Source: Escherichia phage FL31
DNA length: 64,000 nt
Sequence record: PP400782
Reading direction: 5' to 3' (one strand)
Part shown: piece after piece, positions 237-46,260 of the stretch
Layout of the letters: every line of letters starts with the position of its first letter
Numbering within the stretch: the stretch's first letter is position 1
Notes under the pieces: generated by a model
The model's database searches: none
What the model saw: the letters and a program-made list of their open reading frames with translations, nothing else
Told to the model about the DNA's origin: nothing
Position numbers and translations under genes: made by a program

Positions 237-502
237 TTGATGTCCTCGATTTTGGTTACGGTTCTATTATAAGCCACTTCATCTAGAAGCGATTTCAGCG
301 TTTTCTGATAAGTGGTAATCCATTTACCGAGACCTTCAACATAGTATTCTGAAATGTAGATGAACCCTTGTTCAACACACTCTTTAAATATTTCTGCGTC
401 TTTTACTAAACGAAACAACGGCCAGTCTCGAAAGAACATGTTAACGTGACCGTAGTCACGCGTTGTGTTTTTGCCATCTGTAATATCATGAACTACAAAC
501 AT
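233..502 (-). CDS. hypothetical protein (89 aa)
   Basis: ORF track; stop overlaps ligase start; no recognisable motif. Confidence 0.5.
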   Translation of the reverse strand: MFVVHDITDGKNTTRDYGHVNMFFRDWPLFRLVKDAEIFKECVEQGFIYISEYYVEGLGKWITTYQKTLKSLLDEVAYNRTVTKIEDIK

Positions 503-511
503 AATTAACCC

Positions 512-1327
512 TTAACAATTTATAGACCAAGTCCATTTGGACGAATCTAAAGGAAAGTTTTGAATCGTCCACCATGGCTGCATATCGGTTGGTCCTGGAG
601 TTCGCCAGGTATACGGATTCGACGGAGCGCCGATTTGATTAGGCCATGCGCCTGGACTTGTTGCACCAGATTCTTTAAGCAAATCCGCCAATCGTTTTAA
701 AAGGTCTTCACGATCTGAATCTGAATTATGCTCAGGTGGAACCAAACGAGATTCAATATCATCCCACGTGTGTACACGTTGTGCAGTACGAGGAATGGCA
801 TCACGTTCACCACGAGCCAACCAATAAATCGGTACATTAAGAATTTCTGCCGCATGGTCACAGTGATGAGCTAAATCGTCAACGTAACAAATCACGTTAT
901 ATTTTGTTTTAGCTAGTTCAAATAATTGTTCCTTTGACGAATCATGACCACACATCATTACTTCAGAAAAAGCGCCTGGGAACAAAGCATTCAAATTAAA
1001 TTGTCTATTCAATCGAGCATCAATTGAATCACCTAGCGCCGTCACGGCTACAAAATTATAGTCTTCTTTTAGTTTATTGATAACTCGAAGAGCATCAGAA
1101 TAAGGCGCTAAGTAACGAATAAAATCAGAGCTATTATATTTTTCTATTAATTGTTTACCAAGGTTATCGTCGGTATTGAACAGTTTACCAGGAGAAATAA
1201 ATTTTTCGTCCTGAATCATTTTTAAAATATGTTCTAATGGAAGGTTATATTTTTGGGCAAAATAAGGAAGTCCAGATTGCCAGCTTAAACATACACCATC
1301 AATATCAGTCAAAATAGTAGGCTTCAT
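512..1327 (-). CDS. HAD-superfamily hydrolase/phosphatase-like protein (271 aa)
   Basis: N-terminal DIDGV (HAD motif I); Trp/Pro-rich C-terminal tail; motif-level call only. Confidence 0.5.
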   Translation of the reverse strand: MKPTILTDIDGVCLSWQSGLPYFAQKYNLPLEHILKMIQDEKFISPGKLFNTDDNLGKQLIEKYNSSDFIRYLAPYSDALRVINKLKEDYNFVAVTALGDSIDARLNRQFNLNALFPGAFSEVMMCGHDSSKEQLFELAKTKYNVICYVDDLAHHCDHAAEILNVPIYWLARGERDAIPRTAQRVHTWDDIESRLVPPEHNSDSDREDLLKRLADLLKESGATSPGAWPNQIGAPSNPYTWRTPGPTDMQPWWTIQNFPLDSSKWTWSINC

Positions 1328-5545: not shown

Positions 5546-6537
5546 TATTGAACCTTATTAATATAAGTTAACAGCTCTTTAGTTTGTTCCCAACTGATGC
5601 ACGCATCGGTAACGGAAACGCCATAGGACATATTATCAGAAATTTTTTGATTTCCTTCATGTAGGAATGATTCTATCATAATTCCTTTGACCAAATCATT
5701 AGCTGCTAAATTTTTACCAATACCAATTTGATTGCTATAATGCCCAGCAGCGTTTGCATGGCTACAGTCAACCATTACATAATGATTCAGACCTACTGCC
5801 CTTGCTTTGTTAGAAGCTTCTTGAATATCAGAAGAATGATAGTTCGGACCGTTGGTCCCACCACGCAATACGATATGCGTATTCTGATTACCTTCAGCTT
5901 CAACAATGCCTACAGTACCATCGACGTCCATACCCATATACCGATGAGGCCAGGCGGCACTATACATCGCGTCTGTAGCTACTTTAATAGAACCATTGGT
6001 TGCGTTCTTGAAGCCTACGCACATCGGTAGACCTGAAGCAATTTCACGATGTGTCTGGCTTTCAGTAGTACGGGCGCCAATAGCAACCCATGAGAAAATA
6101 CCAGAAAGATACTTAATCGTGAATGGGTCTAATACTTCAGTTGCTAATGGAAGTCCCATACGTAGAAGTTTACGACACAATGTTCGTGCAACTATAAGAC
6201 CGTGGTTCATATCAAAACTTCCGTCAAGATATGGATCATTTACAAGACCTTTCCAACCTACGGTAGTTCGAGGCTTTTCAAAATAAACGCGCATCACTAA
6301 CAGAACATTAGGAAGACGAGTTTGAAGTTCAGCCAGACGTTTGCCGTATTCAACAGCAGCAATAGGGTCATGAATTGAACAAGGACCTACAACAATAAGT
6401 TTGCGTGGGTCTTCACCGTTCATAATCGAATTAACTTGTTCGCGATGAGAAGCCACTTGTGATGCGTAAGCTTCCGACAAAGGAATAATCTCAGCCAGTT
6501 CTTTTGGAGAAATAAGTTTTCCGACGACAGGTAACAT
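5545..6537 (-). CDS. 3-deoxy-D-arabino-heptulosonate-7-phosphate (DAHP) synthase-like protein, class I AroG/AroF/AroH type
   Basis: 330 aa; VVGPCSIHDP, MRVYFEKPRTTVGWKG, GARTTESQ, VGFKNAT, ILRGG, ESFLHEGNQ, SVTDAC align with E. coli AroG; stop overlaps cd start by 1 nt. Confidence 0.75.
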   Translation of the reverse strand: MLPVVGKLISPKELAEIIPLSEAYASQVASHREQVNSIMNGEDPRKLIVVGPCSIHDPIAAVEYGKRLAELQTRLPNVLLVMRVYFEKPRTTVGWKGLVNDPYLDGSFDMNHGLIVARTLCRKLLRMGLPLATEVLDPFTIKYLSGIFSWVAIGARTTESQTHREIASGLPMCVGFKNATNGSIKVATDAMYSAAWPHRYMGMDVDGTVGIVEAEGNQNTHIVLRGGTNGPNYHSSDIQEASNKARAVGLNHYVMVDCSHANAAGHYSNQIGIGKNLAANDLVKGIMIESFLHEGNQKISDNMSYGVSVTDACISWEQTKELLTYINKVQ

Positions 6538-6657
6538 AACAATCCTTAGGAGATATAAACAGATTCTGATTCAACAATACCTTTAACCGGATTAGACAGG
6601 CTAAGTTGGTAGTGCTCAGATTTATGACCATTCTCGATAGTAATGAGATAGCTCTCA

Positions 6658-6894
6658 TTATAGTGTTCCATATACTCGAGTTGCTTCAACAAGACCATCA
6701 CTGCCTAATTTAAGATTAGTAATTTGGTCACCATCTTTAGGATTAACGATTATGAGAAAAGAACGTGGAGATTCTTGAATAACTCGTAATGTTGCATCTT
6801 GGAAACGTTCAGACACTTTATTGATGAGTGCTTGAGCAAATTCTTTTACTTTAATCTGAAATTCGTGTACTGTAATTGGGTTTTCACTTAGCAT
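6658..6894 (-). CDS. hypothetical protein (78 aa)
   Basis: ORF track. Confidence 0.45.
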   Translation of the reverse strand: MLSENPITVHEFQIKVKEFAQALINKVSERFQDATLRVIQESPRSFLIIVNPKDGDQITNLKLGSDGLVEATRVYGTL

Positions 6895-6910
6895 TTCTAT
6901 TTCCTCATTT

Positions 6911-6950
6911 TGGTAGAGTCATCATATCACAACTCTACGGTGTTGTAAAC
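6911..6950 (-). promoter_or_regulatory. early-type promoter (GTTTAC ... TATGAT)
   Basis: Minus-strand read; 7-bp inverted repeat GTAGAGT/ACTCTAC flanks -10. Confidence 0.45.
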
Positions 6951-7226
6951 TTAAATTGCAAAACATTTAATTTCTTGTGAATCGAAATCAACTTCGCACT
7001 GAATTACTAGTTCAGCATCAAGTCCAAACACAACAATCACATGAGCCGAGCTGGGCAACAGTGTAACGGACACAGAATCCACTTGGTCAGGCACCAGCGT
7101 ATTCAAAACGTAGAGTAGTTCAGAGTGGATCTTAAGCTCTGTAGCCGTGTCCAGCTTATCAAAGAAATGATTTGCGATAATCTGACTAAAAACGACCTTT
7201 ACAATTTCAGAATATTTAGGGAACAT
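6951..7226 (-). CDS. hypothetical protein (91 aa)
   Basis: ORF track. Confidence 0.45.
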   Translation of the reverse strand: MFPKYSEIVKVVFSQIIANHFFDKLDTATELKIHSELLYVLNTLVPDQVDSVSVTLLPSSAHVIVVFGLDAELVIQCEVDFDSQEIKCFAI

Positions 7227-7233
7227 AATTACC

Positions 7234-7458
7234 TCAGTGTACAGTATTTACTTTAACTCGAACAACAAATTGCTCGGTCGGTTCGCCTACAGGAACAAAC
7301 TCTACATGATATTCACCTTTGTAACGAGTATTCAGATCATTACGAATTCCTGCGAGTTTGTTGATTAATGTAGGACTCATATTAAGTCCCACTAGTTTAC
7401 GAAGCATTTTGTATGCTTCATCTTCGATTTCATGATGTTTATCGTACATAGTTTTCAT
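7234..7458 (-). CDS. hypothetical protein (74 aa)
   Basis: ORF track. Confidence 0.45.
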   Translation of the reverse strand: MKTMYDKHHEIEDEAYKMLRKLVGLNMSPTLINKLAGIRNDLNTRYKGEYHVEFVPVGEPTEQFVVRVKVNTVH

Positions 7459-7629
7459 TTAACCATTCAATTGCCTGGTCGACGTTATCAAATATACCGC
7501 CGTCCAAACGTTCTTCATGCTCATAGTCCAGCACATCAATATCGAACTGTCCATTTACTAAAGGCCAGGCTACAAACAAATATTCTTTATGATGTTCGAT
7601 GGCCTCAATCACTTCATATAATCGTTTCA

Positions 7630-7630
<1 letters not shown>
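7439..7630 (-). CDS. hypothetical protein (63 aa)
   Basis: ORF track; abuts pseT start. Confidence 0.4.
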
Positions 7631-8716
<1,086 letters not shown>

Positions 8717-8717
<1 letters not shown>

Positions 8718-9016
8718 TATTTTATTCCTAAGAAAGTTTCAAGAATACGAATGTTATGCTCGCGCCGGTCTTTATTAATTTCAGCAACGTTTTTATTAAT
8801 TGACGTACTTCTAACGTTTGAAGAAATAAATTTAATCATATGACTTTTGAGTTGTTGCAAATCCAACCCTTTTTCTTTAGCAGCTTTACGAAGAGCTTTA
8901 CCTGCTTCATCTAGTGCCTTTGCTGCATCTTTGTCATAATTGACAAGTGACATTCCACGGCAGATATCAATATACTCATCAGACCGTTTGATGTAATTCT
9001 CTAGTAATGTTTTCAT
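8717..9016 (-). CDS. hypothetical protein (99 aa)
   Basis: ORF track; SD GAGGAAA upstream; early-type promoter 9037-9074. Confidence 0.5.
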
Positions 9017-9036
9017 CTAGATTTCCTCAATTATCC

Positions 9037-9074
9037 ATAGGAGCATTATACTCTGCTCCCGAGAGTTTGTAAAC
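9037..9074 (-). promoter_or_regulatory. early-type promoter (GTTTAC ... TATAAT)
   Basis: Minus-strand read; inverted repeat GGAGCA/TGCTCC flanks -10; near-duplicate of promoter at 38200-38237. Confidence 0.5.
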
Positions 9075-9298
9075 TATTTTACTAAAGATTCAATATACTC
9101 ATGAAGAGCTTTAGTAGCTACTGCCCACTTATTCTGATATTCATTTTTCAGATTAGCACGAGACTGAACTAACAAGCTGTCATTAGTCGGAGGCAAAGAT
9201 TCTAATCGTTGAATCTGGCGCCCATAAATCATAGCCGCCATTTCAGATTCATAGATAAGCCCTTTAATGTGTTCAAGCTGTTCTTTAGTCATTGGCAT
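9074..9298 (-). CDS. hypothetical protein (74 aa)
   Basis: ORF track. Confidence 0.45.
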   Translation of the reverse strand: MPMTKEQLEHIKGLIYESEMAAMIYGRQIQRLESLPPTNDSLLVQSRANLKNEYQNKWAVATKALHEYIESLVK

Positions 9299-9579
9299 TT
9301 TTCCTCTTTTAAACCACTACGATAATAACATAACATAGTCTTCTGGTCATGTACATATCTTTTTACGTCGTTTAACCAGATACGAAATTCTTGAGAGTCT
9401 TCAAATGGCATTCCAACCCACGGATTACCATCAATAACCTTTACTTGCCATTTCTGGTTGTATTCGGAAATAGGCGTAGGCCATGAAGGATGTAAAGTTT
9501 CTTTAGGGCTTACTGGCACATCCTGGGTACATCCAACTAGGAGACCAATAGATAATACAACTGCGGTTAATTTAATCAT
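9289..9579 (-). CDS. outer-membrane spanin (o-spanin lipoprotein), PseT.2-like
   Basis: 96 aa; signal peptide with lipobox LLVGC; immediately downstream of i-spanin, as in T4 pseT.3/pseT.2. Confidence 0.6.
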   Translation of the reverse strand: MIKLTAVVLSIGLLVGCTQDVPVSPKETLHPSWPTPISEYNQKWQVKVIDGNPWVGMPFEDSQEFRIWLNDVKRYVHDQKTMLCYYRSGLKEEKCQ

Positions 9580-9932
9580 TCTGAGAGCTTCCTGAGGTCT
9601 TCTGCAAAGGAATCGAAGGACCTGTTGATTTGTTTTTCGACCAATCCTGGTTTACTTGCCACCACGTTCTTCTTCTTCGAATCCTTACGGAGCTTTTCAT
9701 TTTCAGCCTTAAGTTGGTCAACTAAAACACGGTTCTTATAAGTCATTTCTTCGATTGACTGATATTGAACCTTGAAGTCGTCTAATACTTTAGCATTGTT
9801 TTTAGCAGTCTCTTTTACTGTAGCCAATTCAGTATTCAGCGAATCGACTTTATGGTTCAGAAATGCTATTGTTACAGTAGCAACAACCGCAAAAGCTGCC
9901 ACTACAATATATGATGCATTTACTTTAAGCAT
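9576..9932 (-). CDS. inner-membrane spanin (i-spanin), PseT.3-like
   Basis: 118 aa; N-terminal TM segment YIVVAAFAVVATVTIAFL then charged coiled-coil region. Confidence 0.6.
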   Translation of the reverse strand: MLKVNASYIVVAAFAVVATVTIAFLNHKVDSLNTELATVKETAKNNAKVLDDFKVQYQSIEEMTYKNRVLVDQLKAENEKLRKDSKKKNVVASKPGLVEKQINRSFDSFAEDLRKLSE

Positions 9933-10420
9933 GTTTGAATAATCTCAATGATTTCGTCTCGGGATAATCCATTGATAAGAACTGTTTTAGGCCCGTCAGT
10001 TTGGATTTTGTATGATTCAAACAATACACACAACTCTTCTGCTGTATGATATGGGCTTGAGATTCCGAGACGGTTGAATTTGTCGGTAAGAGGGTCGCAA
10101 ATGATGTAGAATTTGATACCTGCGATATGTACGTTTGGTTGACTAATATTAATGAACACATTAGCGTCATATTTAGTCAAATTGTTTTGAAGAAATTCTA
10201 CCATAGCATTAACTGCTTCCGGCATCGCTTCGCGTTTCTCTTCAGCGTATCGGGTGGAATACTCTTTTTGTTTTACTTTCTTTTTAAGATTTTTGGCCAG
10301 TGTAACACGTAGGTCAGTAAGATAACCAACTGGACGTCCTTTCTTAAAGACCCGGATTCCGTCAGTTGTGTCTCCAAAAGCGGTTACGACCATATCGTTA
10401 GTAATCAATTGCATATTCAT
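9920..10420 (-). CDS. alc: Alc-like protein (transcription termination on cytosine-containing DNA)
   Basis: Position between 63 and spanins as in T4; start moved to internal ATG (MNMQ...) because SD GAGGAG precedes it and the longer ORF would overlap promoter 10441-10480. Confidence 0.5.
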   Translation of the reverse strand: MNMQLITNDMVVTAFGDTTDGIRVFKKGRPVGYLTDLRVTLAKNLKKKVKQKEYSTRYAEEKREAMPEAVNAMVEFLQNNLTKYDANVFINISQPNVHIAGIKFYIICDPLTDKFNRLGISSPYHTAEELCVLFESYKIQTDGPKTVLINGLSRDEIIEIIQTCLK

Positions 10421-10440
10421 AATTTTCTCCTCGTATTGTT

Positions 10441-10480
10441 GATAAAAGCCATAGTAACACCTTCCTTGGTGTTTGTAAAC
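10441..10480 (-). promoter_or_regulatory. early-type promoter (GTTTAC ... TACTAT)
   Basis: Minus-strand read; between gene 63 stop and alc. Confidence 0.45.
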
Positions 10481-10482
10481 CA

Positions 10483-11616
<1,134 letters not shown>

Positions 11617-11627
11617 TCAGTTAGTTT

Positions 11628-11662
11628 TTTAAATTGTACCACAATCCTTGTGGTATGTAAAC
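11628..11662 (-). promoter_or_regulatory. early-type promoter (GTTTAC ... TACAAT) upstream of gene 63
   Basis: Minus-strand read; -35 overlaps denA stop codon. Confidence 0.4.
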
Positions 11663-12072
11663 TACTTTTTCTTATGTTGGATATTCCAAGGCGGGTTGAA
11701 CTTTTTGATAAAAAGCGGTTCTTCAAGGTCCATTGTTGCGATGGTCATTGAACCAAGTTCGTTGGTGACTGAAAGGTCAAAACATTGGCGGGCCCAGAAT
11801 TCAACCTTTTTGCCTTGCATTAAGGCATCCAAAATCATAAGTGATTTTCTTGAATCTGAAGTCTGGTCTTTTCGATTTATGGCTGTTCGATAATAGTTAA
11901 TGCGTTTCTTTAAATTCTTGGTTTTACCAATATACACAAGTTCGTCATCTATAGCAATAGCATATATGACATTTTTCTTATTAGGGACATCAACTGTTTT
12001 AATTGTTGCATCTTCTAATAGCTCCAATTCTGTATATTTAATAAAGGAATATTCGGCGGCGATATCTTTCAT
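11662..12072 (-). CDS. denA: endonuclease II
   Basis: 136 aa; GIY-YIG-like VYIGKTKNLKKRINYY; position between 63 and nrdB. Confidence 0.8.
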   Translation of the reverse strand: MKDIAAEYSFIKYTELELLEDATIKTVDVPNKKNVIYAIAIDDELVYIGKTKNLKKRINYYRTAINRKDQTSDSRKSLMILDALMQGKKVEFWARQCFDLSVTNELGSMTIATMDLEEPLFIKKFNPPWNIQHKKK

Positions 12073-12098: not shown

Positions 12099-12601
12099 TT
12101 AGAAATATTTTTTGTATGAATTGATTACATTTTGGTCTACATCATTATCAATTTGTGCGACAAGATAAGAACTGATTTCAACTTCCTGAGGAGCTGCTTG
12201 AACTAAATCAGAGTTCAGATATTCACGAATCCAAGGATACGGATGCTTGGTCGGAGCATCAGTAATTGGACATGGCAAACCACACTGTTTCATACGAGAC
12301 ACAGTCAAGTAATCAACAAAAGCACACATACTCTGCGTATTGATACCTGGACATGTACCATCTTTAAAGAGGTGTGCAGCCCATTCCTTCTCTTGACTAT
12401 TTACTTCCATAAAAATGTCAACTGCTTCTTGTTCACATTCTTTAGCAATTTGAACCCACTCATCACCGTCAGTACCAGATTGAAGTTGACGGATAATGTA
12501 CTGAGTACCCTTGAGATGGAGTTGTTCGTCACGAGCAATGAACTTCATAATCTTTGCATTACCTTCCATAATTTCCATGTTCTTATGGAAGTTAAAGGTA
12601 C
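12099..12601 (-). CDS. nrdB: ribonucleotide reductase small subunit NrdB, exon 2
   Basis: In-frame continuation ...TFNFHKNMEIMEGNAKIMKFIARDEQLHL... of NrdB; proposed 3' splice site after intron-terminal G at 12602. Confidence 0.75.
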
Positions 12602-13692
12602 CGTTATGTTCGATTGAGCTCGCTAATTCTCAACCCGTTCTCTTATGAACTGCTACATATTACTATGCAGACCAGACTATATCACAATCCCAGAGGGATT
12701 CTCCCCATTTCGAGTCGCTTGACCCTACGTCCGAAGACTAGTCGTTGAACCTTGCTTTGCAATTGTCGCCGTGCCATCGTTTATATGTTGATGGTGATAA
12801 ATCTTTCTTATCACAATATGGACAATTCAATTGAATTCTATTTGGATTTAATTTACATCTATCATTATGTTTTAGATAAAATCCAGGACCTTTACCAATG
12901 TGACCGCAGAAATCACATGTGATTTCTTTTTGTGCAGGATGGGTTCCGTTCTTAACCATTTCTAATGTTTTTGCTGATGTTCTTTTCTTATGGTCTTCTG
13001 ACAAGAAATGATGTGAACCGTCATTTACCCGTTTTGATTGAGTTTCTGACTGCATTTTACCACCGCAAAATACATGAGTACCTTCTTTTATAGCTGCAAT
13101 ATTGCGTTCTTTAACTTTTGCAATATGCTCAGCTTGTTGAAAATTATGTATACCTAATGCAACTCTATTTAAATTAGATTTACGCTGTATTTCACCGTCT
13201 AAAAGATGAAATGTACCATTTTCTATCTTAGATTTAATAGAGGCAATATTTTTAGCTCGTACTTCAGGGATATTAAAAATCTGGATTTCTCTAGATTTTG
13301 CGGCTTTAGAAGCTAATTCAGAAATTTCTTCAGGAGAATATTTCATTCTAAGCTTTATAGCGTGACAAGCCTGGTAATCTTTTTGAGCTAAATGTATATC
13401 ATAATGTTCCTGTATAGAAAGGCACATCAAATTATCTAAATCATTATTTTCACGGTTACCGTCTTTATGATGGATTTCGTATGTTCTTCCATCAGAATCT
13501 TTAGGTATAGGTCCGTTAGCATCTATCCAAATTTTTCTATAGTTCAATTGTGCATCCTCTTAAAAGTATAATCATATTTATATTATACTAATTAAAGGTG
13601 CAAGCAAAACCTTGGCTGCTAGTTTTCCTATAAAGGACTTTCCAGCAATTAAAGGAGTTTTCGATAAACGTTACCGTTTAAAGGCGCATTTT
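12602..13692 (-). mobile_element. group I self-splicing intron in nrdB carrying a homing endonuclease ORF (about 1091 nt)
   Basis: NrdB reading frame interrupted between RFYVSFA and (C)TFNFHK; exon 1 ends in U, intron ends in G; boundaries inferred by frame reconstruction, not by folding. Confidence 0.7.
12738..13547 (-). CDS. HNH homing endonuclease, I-TevIII-like, full length (269 aa)
   Basis: N-terminal HNH motif YEIHHKDGNRENNDLDNLMCLSIQEHYDIH; C-terminal Cys/His-rich region CDFCGH...CPYCDKK...WHGDNCK; lies inside nrdB intron. Confidence 0.8.
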   Translation of the reverse strand: MNYRKIWIDANGPIPKDSDGRTYEIHHKDGNRENNDLDNLMCLSIQEHYDIHLAQKDYQACHAIKLRMKYSPEEISELASKAAKSREIQIFNIPEVRAKNIASIKSKIENGTFHLLDGEIQRKSNLNRVALGIHNFQQAEHIAKVKERNIAAIKEGTHVFCGGKMQSETQSKRVNDGSHHFLSEDHKKRTSAKTLEMVKNGTHPAQKEITCDFCGHIGKGPGFYLKHNDRCKLNPNRIQLNCPYCDKKDLSPSTYKRWHGDNCKARFND

Positions 13693-14368
13693 ACGCAAAA
13701 GATACATAAAAACGAATAGCTTCTAAGGCATTAATAACGTGTAAACAGAGGTAAAGAGATTTCATTAAAGCACGTTTAGCTTCGGCTTCTTGTTTAATAG
13801 CTCGGTTTAAACGAAAATCAGCATCAGGAGATTCTTTAGCTAGTTCTACAAATTCTTTAGCATTTTCCCAATAACGAGTTTTAACCAGAACATCATCGTA
13901 ATATTTACCTATTGATTCAGCTCGTTTCATGATTGCTTCGTCTAATACAATCTCATCAAATACCTTAGATGGATCGGTATAAAGATTTCGCATAATATGA
14001 GTGTACGAACGAGAGTGAATAGTTTCACTGAATGTCCATGTTGCAACCCACGTATCTAATGAAGGGTCGGAAATCAGTGCCATAAGTACCGCAGATGGGG
14101 CCCTGCCTTGGATAGAATCTAATAATGATTGATACTTAAGATTGTTTGTAAAGATGTCCTGTTGGAACTGAGGAAGCTTATTGAACTGCGCAGAGTCCAA
14201 CATCAAGTTTACCTCTTCTGGGCGCCAGAAAAACGACAATTGCTTTTCAATAAGTTCTTCAAAAACTTTATGTCGCTGAATATCATAACGTGCGAGGCCA
14301 AGACCAGAACCAAAGAACATTGGTTCATTCAAAACATCGACTTGTTGTGTGTTAAAAACTGTACTCAT
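13693..14368 (-). CDS. nrdB: ribonucleotide reductase small subunit NrdB, exon 1
   Basis: MSTVFNTQQVDVLNEPMFFGSGLGLARYDIQRH...LHVINALEAIRFYVSFA matches NrdB; start placed at ATG matching T4 N-terminus. Confidence 0.8.
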
Positions 14369-14422
14369 TATATTTCTCACTTAGTTATTAACTCATCCAT
14401 GAGTAAATTATAATCAAAAGTC

Positions 14423-16678
14423 TTAAAGCTTACAAGCAGAACAATCTTCAGCTTTAGGTGTTTCTAATTCATAGTCATCTGTACCTGACCCATCACGGGT
14501 GTTATGATAGTAGAGGTTTTTTCCGCCAAAGTACCAGAAGTAAAGCAGATCGTCAAGCATTACTGACATTGGCACTTTACCTTTCTCAAATACTGCAGGG
14601 TCATAGTAAGTATTAGCAGAAGCAGATTGGCACACCCATTTCAACATGATAGCAACTTGGGTCAAATAAGGTTTATTACCTTTCTTAGCAAGTTTCCACG
14701 CGTAGTCGTAAAGACTCATGTTATGTTCTATATTAGGAACAACCTGTCGGAAGTTGCCTTCTTTAGATTCTTTAATACTTACTGGACCACGTGGGGGCTC
14801 AATCCCGTTTGTAGAGTTCGATACTTGACTGCTTGACTCACAAGGCATGAGTGCAGACAACGTTGAGTTACGAATTCCATGTTCTTTGAGTTCAGCTCGA
14901 AGTTCTTCCCAGTCACAGACATAGTTCGGGGCTGCGATTTGGTCAATCTTTTTATTGTACCAGTCGATAGGTAATTCGCCTCTAGACCATTTAGTGTCTG
15001 AATAATACTCACAAGGTCCTTTTTCTTTGGCGAGTTTGATTGATGCTTTGATAAGGCCATATTGCAATCTCTCGAACAATTCATGGGTCAAATCGTTAGC
15101 GTCTTCATATGAAGCAAAGTTAGAAGCTAACCATGCAGCATAGTTCGTCACACCAACACCAAGATTACGACGCTTTTTAGCTTTTAAAGCTTCTGGAACC
15201 GGATAATCTTGATAGTCTAACAGGTTATCAAGTGCACGTACTTGTACTTCAGCAAGTTCATTAATTTTATCTTGGTCTTGCCAATCAAATTTATCTAATA
15301 CAAAAGCAGATAATGTGCATAAACCAATTTCAGCATCAGGACCATTCACATCATTAGTTGGAATAGCGATTTCACAACATAAGTTACTCTGACGAATTGG
15401 AGCTTTTTCACGAATAAACGGAGTGTAGTTATTCGTGTTATCAACAAACTGTGGATAAATTCGAGCAGTGCCAGAACGTTCAGTCATGAACAATTCAAAG
15501 AGTTCTAGTGCTTTGATTCTTTTCTTTCTGATTGTTGGGTCTTTTTCAGCTTTCTCATAAAGCTCACGGAATTTATCTTGATCTTCAAAGAACGAGTAGT
15601 ATAGTTCGCCTGACATTTCGTGAGGGCTAAATAAAGTAATATAATCATTTTTACCAAGGCGTTCCATCATAAGGTCATTAATCTGAATTCCGTAGTCCAT
15701 ATGTCGAATACGGTTTTCATCCACGCCTTTGTTATTTTTCAGAACTAATAGGTTCTCTACTTCTAAGTGCCACATCGGATAATACGCTGTAGCAGCACCA
15801 CCACGAATACCGCCTTGAGAACAAGATTTTACTGCAGTTTGGAAATGTTTCCAGAATGGAATAACACCTGTATGTCGAACTTCACCCATACCGATCTTAG
15901 AACCTTCTGCACGAAGCATACCAACGTTGATACCAATACCAGCTCGTTTAGAAATATATTCAATAATTGATGCTGAAGTTTTGTTAATAGATTTTAACGA
16001 ATCACCGGCTTCAATAACTACACAACTAGAGAACTGGCGAGTCGGAGTACGAGCACCTGCCATAATTGGAGTTGGCAATGAAACTTGATGAGTAGAAACG
16101 GCATCATAAAAACGAATAATATGTTTCAAACGGTCATGAGTTTCGTCTTGGTGTAAGGCCATACCAATAGCCATGATAGCAAACTGCGGAGTTTCATAAA
16201 TCTTACCAGTTGTTTTATCTTTAACCAGGTATTTTTCTTTAAGCTGCATAGCACCAGCATAAGTCAGGTCAAAGTCTCGTTCATGTTTAATCTGTGAATC
16301 GAGATAAATGATTTCTTCTGCTGAATATTGAGACAACAGCTCAGGGTCATATTTGCCTTCATTAACACAGTAAGAAATATGGTCGATAAAAGCAGGTGGT
16401 TCAAACTGCTCATATACATCTTTACGAAGTGCAAACATTAGACCTTTGGCGGCGACATACTGATAATCAGGTTCTTCGACAGAAATCGAGTTAGCTGCAA
16501 CTTTAATACAAATCTTCTGAATATCTTTGGTGCTCATCCCATCAACCAGATGAGTCTTAATTTCTTCATACAATTCGTATGGGTCAATTTGTGTTCCTTC
16601 ACATTGCCAAGTTAAGACTTGAATAATTTTCTGTGCATCAAAATTTTGTGATACACCACTGCTCTTAGTTACTTGCAT
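14423..16678 (-). CDS. nrdA: ribonucleotide reductase large subunit NrdA
   Basis: Class Ia RNR alpha motifs (NLCCEIAIP, C-terminal CSACKL); start moved to ATG preceded by SD GAGGAA; no intron. Confidence 0.92.
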   Translation of the reverse strand: MQVTKSSGVSQNFDAQKIIQVLTWQCEGTQIDPYELYEEIKTHLVDGMSTKDIQKICIKVAANSISVEEPDYQYVAAKGLMFALRKDVYEQFEPPAFIDHISYCVNEGKYDPELLSQYSAEEIIYLDSQIKHERDFDLTYAGAMQLKEKYLVKDKTTGKIYETPQFAIMAIGMALHQDETHDRLKHIIRFYDAVSTHQVSLPTPIMAGARTPTRQFSSCVVIEAGDSLKSINKTSASIIEYISKRAGIGINVGMLRAEGSKIGMGEVRHTGVIPFWKHFQTAVKSCSQGGIRGGAATAYYPMWHLEVENLLVLKNNKGVDENRIRHMDYGIQINDLMMERLGKNDYITLFSPHEMSGELYYSFFEDQDKFRELYEKAEKDPTIRKKRIKALELFELFMTERSGTARIYPQFVDNTNNYTPFIREKAPIRQSNLCCEIAIPTNDVNGPDAEIGLCTLSAFVLDKFDWQDQDKINELAEVQVRALDNLLDYQDYPVPEALKAKKRRNLGVGVTNYAAWLASNFASYEDANDLTHELFERLQYGLIKASIKLAKEKGPCEYYSDTKWSRGELPIDWYNKKIDQIAAPNYVCDWEELRAELKEHGIRNSTLSALMPCESSSQVSNSTNGIEPPRGPVSIKESKEGNFRQVVPNIEHNMSLYDYAWKLAKKGNKPYLTQVAIMLKWVCQSASANTYYDPAVFEKGKVPMSVMLDDLLYFWYFGGKNLYYHNTRDGSGTDDYELETPKAEDCSACKL

Positions 16679-16764
16679 ATATTCCTCGGATAGATTGATA
16701 GACATTACTCCAAACGGGATAGTATTTATCCCGTTAATTTATTATACACTTTTAAACTGAAGCG

Positions 16765-17019
16765 TTAATTATTCTTAGCAATAATTTCTTTGTATTCTTT
16801 AGGAGTCAAGACCGTAATATCGAAATAAACCAATGGTTCTTTTTCCATACCGTAACCACCACAAAATTCGCGATATTCATAAATTCGTTCGTGTGAATGG
16901 CAAATGAATCGTTCACCTTTAACTGTGATTTCACTATTTGGTGAAGGGATATCCAGTTCACTTGGATTTTTCATTTCAAAAATTGTGGTGCCATATGAAT
17001 TAATAAAACGTAAAATCAT
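16765..17019 (-). CDS. hypothetical protein (84 aa)
   Basis: ORF track; between td and nrdA. Confidence 0.5.
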   Translation of the reverse strand: MILRFINSYGTTIFEMKNPSELDIPSPNSEITVKGERFICHSHERIYEYREFCGGYGMEKEPLVYFDITVLTPKEYKEIIAKNN

Positions 17020-17020
17020 T

Positions 17021-18716
<1,696 letters not shown>

Positions 18717-44426: not shown

Positions 44427-44444
44427 AAGCTCCCGAAGGAGCTT
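44427..44444 (-). terminator. UUCG hairpin overlapping gene 39 stop codon
   Basis: AAGCUCC-UUCG-GGAGCUU then U/A-rich tract. Confidence 0.45.
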
Positions 44445-46260
44445 AGGACATCCATTCTTTACGAAGTTCTGAATCATCACCCAACAACATTTCAAAGAGT
44501 TCTTTCCAATTTTCAGGAAGTTTAACTACGTCGTACACAGGGTTCTGAATCATTTCACGATACTCTGACTTTTCAAGGGAGCCTAATCCCTTGATGTATC
44601 GAATACTATGCTTAGGCAGTGTATCTTTAACTTCTTCATACTCAGCTACAGTATAAAACCATTTTTGAGTTTTGCCAATTTGTGCAATAATTACAGGTGT
44701 TTTAACAAAGCGAATACGTCCTTGTTCAAACAATTCAGGCCAATTACTAAAGAAAGCAAGCAAAGCAGGATAAATACTTCCAAGACCGTCATGATCGGCA
44801 TCGGTCATAATTGCAATATTACGATAGTTCGTATTCTCTGCCTTTTCACCAAGAATAAGACCTGTGATAGCACAGATATCGAAGAGCTCTTTGTTCTTCA
44901 TCATATCAGCATATGACATACCCCAGCTATTCATCACCTTACCACGTAGTGGGAATCCGCCGTGTAGTTCACGGTCACGAACATCAATGAGATAACCAAT
45001 TGCAGAATCACCTTCTGTTAAAAACAATGTCGTATCTGCATCTTTACCACATTGGTTAGCTTTAATATGCTTATGAACCTTAGCTTTAGTTGCCTTTTTA
45101 GCTGCTTTAGTTTCTGCAGCCTTTTCTGCCGCCAATTTACGAGCTAATGCTGCTTCAACAATAGGCATAATCAAGGCTTCGTTTTTAAGAAGTGCTTGAG
45201 CAATTTTCTTAGCATCTAATTGGATATGATTACGAATATCACCATACGTTGACGTTAAACGTTCTTTAGTCTGAGAATCAAAACGCATGTTGCTCATGTC
45301 TCTAATAAACATCAACATTGTGAGACATTCTTTAACACGAGCTTTAGTGACTTCAATACCCTTATATTTCTTTTTAATACCCGGCAAAAGATGTTCGCAG
45401 ATATCGTCCATTACACATTCAACATGATGTCCACCATTTTTAGTATGGATATTATTCACATAAGTTAAATGACGGAAGCCATCTGGTGATGTTGTGAATG
45501 CTATAGAGACTTTATCATTTTCTTGAATGATGTTATCTTCACCAAATTGTTTAGCAAATCGTTTAAAATTACCGTCAACCTTTTTACCATTAAATGTGAA
45601 CTTGATATCAGGATAAACGACTGCCAATGTTTGAAGTCGGTCTAAAGTAATATCTAAATAAATTTGAGATAAATTATGCTCTTCAAATGAAGAGAAATCA
45701 GGAGTGAAGATTACTTTAGTGCCTTTATCTTTAGATTTCTTAGAAGACCATGATTTGTTTTCCATTCCGTTTGAACAGTTAACAGTGATTTCGTTTTCGC
45801 CATCTGACGTGATGCCTGTAAACAACGTAGAGAAGATATTAGTTAAACTACTTCCGACGCCGTTCATACCACCAGTCTTGCGTTCAGAATCATCACCAAA
45901 GTTACCACCAGCCTTTGGAATAGTCCAGGCTGCTACAGGCCCAGGAATTTGTTCACCTGTTTGGTCGGTAACTAAACCTTGAGGAATACCACGTCCGTTA
46001 TCTTCCACCGAAACTTGATTATTTTTAATTTGCACATCAATTTTATTTGCAAACTTAAATGATGTACGAATAGCTTCATCAACCGAGTTGTCAATAATCT
46101 CATCGATTAATTTAACCAGACCAGGAACATATTCAACTTGTTGATATTTACCAAACAAAAAACGCTCATGTGCTTCTTTAGCAGAAGAACCAATATACAT
46201 ACCACTACGTTTCTTAATATGTTCTACATCTGACAATACCTTAATTTCATTTTTAATCAT
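44443..46260 (-). CDS. 39: DNA topoisomerase II large subunit gp39 (fused 39+60, GyrB-like ATPase plus Toprim)
   Basis: 605 aa continuous ORF; ...NSVDEAI..., DNGRGIP, GGMNGVGSSL ATPase motifs. Confidence 0.92.
   Translation of the reverse strand: MIKNEIKVLSDVEHIKKRSGMYIGSSAKEAHERFLFGKYQQVEYVPGLVKLIDEIIDNSVDEAIRTSFKFANKIDVQIKNNQVSVEDNGRGIPQGLVTDQTGEQIPGPVAAWTIPKAGGNFGDDSERKTGGMNGVGSSLTNIFSTLFTGITSDGENEITVNCSNGMENKSWSSKKSKDKGTKVIFTPDFSSFEEHNLSQIYLDITLDRLQTLAVVYPDIKFTFNGKKVDGNFKRFAKQFGEDNIIQENDKVSIAFTTSPDGFRHLTYVNNIHTKNGGHHVECVMDDICEHLLPGIKKKYKGIEVTKARVKECLTMLMFIRDMSNMRFDSQTKERLTSTYGDIRNHIQLDAKKIAQALLKNEALIMPIVEAALARKLAAEKAAETKAAKKATKAKVHKHIKANQCGKDADTTLFLTEGDSAIGYLIDVRDRELHGGFPLRGKVMNSWGMSYADMMKNKELFDICAITGLILGEKAENTNYRNIAIMTDADHDGLGSIYPALLAFFSNWPELFEQGRIRFVKTPVIIAQIGKTQKWFYTVAEYEEVKDTLPKHSIRYIKGLGSLEKSEYREMIQNPVYDVVKLPENWKELFEMLLGDDSELRKEWMS

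Follow-up and report, generated by a model that had tools for sequence, protein, structure and literature searches.

A very probable full-length RB3-type mobile group I intron encoding I-TevIII in the nrdB gene of Escherichia phage FL31

Here, we report that the nrdB gene of Escherichia phage FL31 is interrupted on the minus strand at 12602..13692 by what is, with high confidence, the full-length RB3-type mobile group I intron of T-even nrdB. Coordinates refer to the window, i.e., the whole 64,000-nt stretch of FL31 DNA that was analysed. The insert has exact boundaries against an intronless allele, a complete phage-type group I core and an intact I-TevIII reading frame, and nothing in the sequence speaks against this reading. 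The RB3 version of the intron was described in 1991 (Eddy and Gold) and characterised in 2007 (Robbins et al., PMC1865063). RB3 I-TevIII is experimentally active: it cleaves intronless nrdB and makes the intron mobile (PMC1865063).

Results

Exons and intron boundaries

13693..14368, (-) strand: nrdB exon 1, 676 nt, last base U at 13693
12602..13692, (-) strand: nrdB group I intron, 1091 nt, terminal G at 12602, boundaries fixed against the intronless nrdB of RB32
12099..12601, (-) strand: nrdB exon 2, 503 nt including the stop codon

The nrdB frame opens at 14368 (minus strand) and reads ...ALEAIRFYVSFA before the insert. Exon 1 ends with ...CGT TTT TAT GTA TCT TTT GCG T, i.e., RFYVSFA and the first base of a Cys codon; left unspliced, this frame runs past 13693 into a stop codon two bases into the intron. 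Exon 2 begins with GT ACC TTT AAC TTC CAT AAG (C-TFNFHK) and has no proper start at the intron junction; from 12601 the frame continues as (C)TFNFHKNMEIMEGNAK to its end at 12099. When 14368..13693 is joined to 12601..12099, a 1179-nt in-frame CDS for a 392-aa NrdB is obtained, with the spliced-exon junction (13693|12601) reading ...UUUGCGU|GUACCUUU in RNA letters.

Alignment with the intronless nrdB of RB32, which is continuous exactly across the insertion point (...TTTTGCAT|GTACCTTTAAC), places the insertion between ...TTTTGC(G/A)T and GTACCTTTAAC. Because RB32 nrdB is continuous exactly at this junction, the coordinates 12602-13692 that an earlier, sequence-only reading had given for the intron are correct to the base, the NrdB frame being restored. 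That reading had also put a U at the end of exon 1 and a G at the end of the intron, and these are the bases at 13693 and 12602, respectively.

Group I ribozyme core

13599..13692, (-) strand: 5' half of the ribozyme core (intron side of P1, P2, 5' strand of P3, P4, P5, 5' strands of P6 and P6a)
13684..13687, (-) strand: internal guide, the intron side of P1, inside the 5' core half
12602..12761, (-) strand: 3' half of the ribozyme core, first part (3' strands of P6a and P6, P7, P7.1, P7.2, 3' strand of P3)
within 12602..12761, (-) strand: 3' half of the ribozyme core, rest (P8, 3' strand of P7, P9, P9.1, P9.2, terminal G)

Fourteen helices were written out in window coordinates (P1, P2, P3, P4, P5, P6, P6a, P7, P7.1, P7.2, P8, P9, P9.1 and P9.2). 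The sequence-only reading had proposed a P1-P9 fold of the minus-strand RNA as the check on its claim, and the core is present: 70 of the 70 proposed pairs in the 14 helices, through P9.2 and with the P3/P7 pseudoknot included, are standard pairs. In P1, the exon GCGU pairs with the intron GCGC (positions 6-9), which puts a U(-1).G6 wobble at the 5' splice site. The presence of P7.1/P7.2 extensions is consistent with subgroup IA2, the phage-type subgroup that includes the T4 introns.

Across four phages (window, S16, T4 and PD112), 99.6% of cells pair, compared with 35-45% when the partners are slid by 1-3 columns, a control that favours a structure drawn, as ours was, from the window sequence itself. 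Compensatory changes on both sides of a pair, from A-U to G-C, are found in P2 in S16 and in P9 in T4. The covariation is modest, with four sequences and two compensated pairs, and the observed score was reached in 30 of 500 shuffles. The minimum free energy (MFE) fold of a construct without the ORF recovers P1, P4/P5, P6a, P7, P7.2, P8, P9, P9.1 and P9.2. Please note that P3 and P7 form a pseudoknot and cannot be displayed together in a single-sequence MFE fold, where the P3 strand is paired otherwise; hence P3 was placed manually and from the Rfam alignment.

An Rfam search of the whole window at gathering thresholds returned no match. In a permissive search, RF00028 was found at 12653..12889 with 35.4 bits (E 5.7e-7; gathering score 50), the 3' core (J6/7, P7, P3', P8 and P9) aligning well and the 5' half being forced into the ORF. 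Its score falls short of 50 because, with 837 nt inserted in P6a, the model misplaces the 5' half. The T4 and S16 loci likewise gave no RF00028 match at the gathering score, due to the ORF insert in P6a, as in the window. In contrast, the ORF-less nrdB intron of PD112 clears this threshold with 68.6 bits (E 7.4e-16). The other sub-threshold Rfam matches in the region (rseX, mir-1, ceN113, ceN81 and Atu_L1; E 0.5-8) were taken as chance. A blastn search with the 3' core found similar cores in hundreds of unrelated phages (Staphylococcus, Pseudomonas and T7-like), two of them annotated Intron_gpI.

The homologous T4 nrdB intron self-splices. By analogy, the phage-type group I core at 12602..13692 would be expected to self-splice in a guanosine-dependent manner.

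I-TevIII reading frame and protein

12738..13547, (-) strand: I-TevIII ORF, 269 aa, TTG start, looped out of P6a
13404..13538, (-) strand: HNH nuclease domain, residues 4-48 (Pfam HNH_3, E 6e-13), with H26, H27, N39 and H48 present
12855..12917, (-) strand: zinc finger 1, CX2CX12HX3C, residues 211-231
12759..12824, (-) strand: zinc finger 2, CX2CX13HX3C, residues 242-263

The complete 269-aa HNH ORF and the Cys/His-rich C terminus claimed from the sequence alone were both borne out, the former by the HNH_3 match at residues 4-48 and the latter by two CX2CX12-13HX3C motifs beginning at residues 211 and 242. The ORF and the ribozyme share sequence: the last 24 nt of the ORF overlap the 3' strands of P6a/P6, J6/7 and the 5' strand of P7, and the TAG stop codon straddles the P7/P7.1 junction.

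The protein is identical to RB3 I-TevIII at 268 of 269 residues in a gapless alignment. The H26, H27, N39 and H48 of the I-TevIII H-N-H motif have been mutated to probe their catalytic role and are functionally required, and disrupting either zinc finger (C211/C214 or C242/C245) lowers DNA binding and cleavage (PMC1865063); all of these residues are intact in the window ORF. The sole difference from RB3 is at residue 23 (codon 13479..13481), three positions before the catalytic H26, which is Y in the window and D in RB3. The distant Salmonella phage S16 has Y23 as well, as do many other phages, and among the phage records listed, at least 13 agree with the window protein throughout, apart from the TTG start (Leu in tblastn); it is therefore RB3, with D23, that is the unusual one. 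Compared with S16 I-TevIII, the window protein has 89.6% amino acid identity and a dN/dS of 0.11, indicating that the ORF is kept by purifying selection.

A Pfam match to FlgM (anti-sigma-28) at I-TevIII residues 74-114 (13206..13328; 26.2 bits against a cutoff of 25, E 9e-6) was set aside as compositional similarity in the helical Lys/Ser/Ala-rich linker between the HNH domain and the zinc fingers; we propose no anti-sigma role.

Expression signals upstream of I-TevIII

13575..13582, (-) strand: T4 late-promoter box TATAAATA, within the 5' arm and loop of the hairpin by which the ribosome binding site is sequestered
13551..13602, (-) strand: RNA hairpin pairing AAGAGGA with CCUUU (MFE -16.5 kcal/mol, z = -3.3)
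13583..13602, (-) strand: putative I-TevIII operator, intron positions 91-110, 15 of 20 nt identical by local alignment to the homing site at the exon junction

The ribosome binding site AAGAGGA (13555..13561) lies 7 nt before the TTG start. For the intron endonucleases of T4, the ribosome binding site is masked in the long transcripts made in the early and middle periods and is freed in late transcripts, whose start lies inside the hairpin; the late promoter and hairpin of the window I-TevIII have the same regulatory design (PMC2988022). Just upstream of the late promoter, the sequence TGCACCTTTAATTAGTATAA resembles the homing site TGTACCTTTAACTTCCATAA (15/20 identical). A putative autorepression operator for I-TevIII has been mentioned in a review (PMC2988022), and 13583..13602 is a candidate that fits this proposal.

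Homing signature

12571..13870, (-) strand: inferred homing/co-conversion tract, about 1.3 kb and about 99.4% identical to RB3, with flanking nrdB at about 80%

The RB3 intron lies in the same gene at the same insertion site and has the same length (1091 nt by alignment), with 1087 of 1091 nt identical; the differences are the D23 for Y23 change and three silent changes. Identity to RB3 is 85.5% in exon 1, 99.6% in the intron and 80.1% in exon 2, and within the exons the differences are unevenly placed. They are dense up to exon-1 position 498, only four fall in the last 178 nt of exon 1, and exon 2 is free of them for its first 31 nt, beyond which they are dense again. The RB3-like tract is thus asymmetric, extending about 178 nt into exon 1 and about 31 nt into exon 2, i.e., it is longer on the side on which I-TevIII cuts. 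From this pattern of differences, the RB3-like block around the intron most likely reflects homing with exon co-conversion. A 99.6% identical intron in nrdB backgrounds that differ by 15-20%, together with such a tract, would imply recent horizontal transfer.

The sequence-only reading had called the intron an active mobile element. RB3 identity, purifying selection and the homing signature argue for this rather than demonstrate it; on these grounds, FL31 I-TevIII probably cleaves intronless nrdB and drives homing.

Genes around nrdB and in the wider window

14423..16705, (-) strand: nrdA, uninterrupted, 760 aa
17021..17881, (-) strand: td, uninterrupted, 286 aa, with no intron and no I-TevI

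An intronless td, as claimed earlier, does set the window apart from T4: td is a single 286-aa ORF here, whereas T4 td carries an intron with I-TevI. The same claim for nrdA is right as far as the single 760-aa ORF goes, but it marks no difference from T4, whose nrdA has no intron either. The broader claim of an intron complement different from that of T4 thus stands at td and nrdB, nrdA being the same; the third T4 intron is in nrdD (PMC1865063), which lies outside the window. No nrdD was found within the 64,000 nt, which end at a DnaB-like helicase ORF, so the full intron complement is not readable from the window. We take the helicase ORF to be gene 41, and the window presumably runs from the pseT/rnlA region to the tail-fibre and rII genes (assigned by size and position), then to gene 39 and gene 41.

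A 605-aa ORF (44443..46260, (-) strand) was considered as NrdD and rejected, being the topoisomerase II large subunit (gene 39). Gene 39 in the window is a single ORF with no split; in T4 this topoisomerase region is divided between genes 39 and 60, which flank mobA, and gene 60 has a translational bypass. Similarly, a 136-aa GIY-YIG ORF downstream of nrdB (11662..12072) was rejected as a second homing endonuclease, since this ORF is DenA (endonuclease II), which is likewise found in RB3 and T4.

Neither mobE nor nrdB.1 is present between nrdA and nrdB in the window, where the spacer (14369..14422) is only 54 nt long. Between td and nrdA, an 84-aa ORF (16765..17019, (-) strand) stands alone; T4 and RB3 have nrdA.1 and nrdA.2 at this place, and phage PTE-Eco05 is arranged like the window.

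Discussion

Proposed mechanism and alternative readings

Taken as the RB3-type mobile intron, the element would work as follows. The nrdB pre-mRNA would fold into the phage-type group I core with P7.1/P7.2 extensions, and guanosine-initiated self-splicing would cut after the U of the P1 U.G pair and after the terminal G, joining the exons into the mRNA for the 392-aa NrdB; this part is argued from the T4 intron. I-TevIII would have its own late promoter, and in the long transcripts of the early and middle periods the hairpin would hide its ribosome binding site, so that translation would take place mainly late in infection. In a mixed infection, the enzyme would cut the intronless allele, which would be repaired from the intron-bearing genome, the intron and adjacent exon sequence being copied in. 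Cleavage, homing and late expression are likewise expected by analogy with the experiments on RB3 and T4.

It could be asked whether the intron splices with an endonuclease that is no longer effective, either Y23 or expression being impaired, in which case it would be a resident, vertically inherited intron. We consider this very unlikely. Residue 23 does differ from that of the only biochemically tested protein, that of RB3, but Y23 is the residue of the distant S16, and the 13 or more listed records that match the window protein carry it too. Decayed nrdB introns do exist in nature, both with the T4-type deletion and as ORF-less mini-introns, and even the RB3 enzyme has low catalytic efficiency and 4.3% homing (Robbins et al.), homing having gone undetected by Eddy and Gold (PMC1865063). 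In FL31, however, all residues shown to be necessary are intact, the dN/dS of 0.11 indicates purifying selection, and the near-identical intron across 15-20% divergent nrdB backgrounds, with its co-conversion tract, implies recent horizontal transfer.

There is next to no chance that a free-standing HNH gene has turned nrdB into a split gene or pseudogene, with no RNA splicing. Such a reading follows the automatic annotation of the closest relatives (two nrdB CDSs and a homing endonuclease), and genes in pieces do occur nearby, the nrdA of PTE-Eco05 being annotated in two pieces around a homing endonuclease gene. The insert in nrdB, however, has a complete group I core with the U.G at the 5' splice site and the terminal G, and taking it out restores the frame at the very point where intronless alleles run on unbroken; exon 1 alone would stop two bases into the intron, and exon 2 would lack a proper start. 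Moreover, the RB3 and T4 records give nrdB as a joined CDS, and self-splicing of the homologous T4 intron is established knowledge.

Just as negligible is the possibility that the intron spread in trans through a neighbouring free-standing endonuclease rather than through its own ORF, as is documented for mobE and the T4 nrdB intron (PMC2790892) and as the mobE beside nrdB in RB3 might suggest, since FL31 has no mobE in its 54-nt nrdA-nrdB spacer and the high-identity tract is centred on the intron and stops short of the 5' end of nrdB, where MobE nicks (PMC2790892).

Significance

The RB3-type mobile intron in FL31 is real but ordinary, an already characterised element with I-TevIII, and it leaves current understanding unchanged. 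The full-length I-TevIII ORF is present in 87 public phage records, other records keep only the C-terminal third, like T4, and in the phage collection many nrdB alleles are intronless and some have ORF-less introns of about 300 nt; the element is therefore already known and common. Its main value is for annotation. One spliced nrdB with an intron-encoded I-TevIII is correct, and many GenBank relatives, the nearest included, carry two nrdB fragments and a 'homing endonuclease' or 'hypothetical protein'. The locus also provides a clear example of homing in nature, with a conserved intron, exons diverged by 15-20% and an asymmetric co-conversion tract.

A mildly new angle is that the Y23 enzyme of many phages differs from the D23 enzyme that was studied biochemically. 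It is conceivable, though unlikely, that Y23 is the natural consensus form and that the D23 enzyme of RB3 is slightly impaired, which might help to explain the low efficiency and the weak or undetected homing of RB3. FL31, with neither mobE nor the td intron, would offer a clean natural background for homing driven by I-TevIII alone.

Comparison with known systems

The closest counterpart is the RB3 intron. Besides its length and insertion site, it shares with the window a 269-aa I-TevIII with a TTG start, which sits at the same place in the intron and has identical HNH and zinc-finger residues. The late promoter, the hairpin and the ribosome binding site that precede the ORF are shared as well. 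It differs in its surroundings, as RB3 has mobE between nrdA and nrdB and the window does not; T4, like RB3, carries this free-standing HNH endonuclease gene between the two.

The T4 nrdB intron (598 nt) has the same insertion site and a near-identical ribozyme core, with the compensated pair in P9 differing from the window. It keeps the first ~21 codons and the C-terminal third of the I-TevIII ORF and lacks 491 nt of it, including the HNH motif; the sequence-only reading was right that T4 has a truncated version. The window has those 491 nt, so its intron is the intact form, free of the T4-type internal HNH deletion of about 0.5 kb. The T4 intron is immobile alone and depends on mobE (PMC1865063, PMC2790892).

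In phage vB_vPM_PD112, a mini-intron of about 304 nt (in region 484..806 of the PD112 locus) sits at the same nrdB insertion site, and its core differs from that of the window by a 2-nt indel only. It has no ORF, which looks to have been deleted between two copies of a short direct repeat; in the window these are:

13545..13551, (-) strand: direct repeat ACAATTG, copy 1, 7 nt, at the ORF start and including the TTG start codon
12760..12766, (-) strand: direct repeat ACAATTG, copy 2, 7 nt, near the ORF end

The apparent PD112 deletion between these repeats suggests a simple route to ORF loss.

The td/I-TevI and nrdD/I-TevII introns are alike in having a phage-type group I core in a gene of nucleotide metabolism and an endonuclease ORF looped out from a peripheral helix, and they too are under late-promoter and hairpin control (PMC2988022). 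They differ in their host genes and in their enzymes: I-TevI and I-TevII are GIY-YIG enzymes, I-TevI being a monomer, and not HNH dimers.

Over 14 kb, the window is about 97% identical to its nearest relatives, PTE-Eco05 and JM17, which have the same nrdB intron. In their annotation, nrdA falls into two pieces on either side of a gene for a 236-aa endonuclease that has an I-HmuI NUMOD-like domain, and their td is split by an intron with a homing endonuclease, whereas both genes are intact in the window (regions 6426..9585 and 9928..11804 of the PTE-Eco05 locus were compared with window 14423..17881). It is thus against these two phages, rather than against T4, that the intactness of nrdA is informative. 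Among phages that are about 97% identical, the content of introns and homing endonucleases (nrdB intron, td intron, nrdA insertion and mobE) varies.
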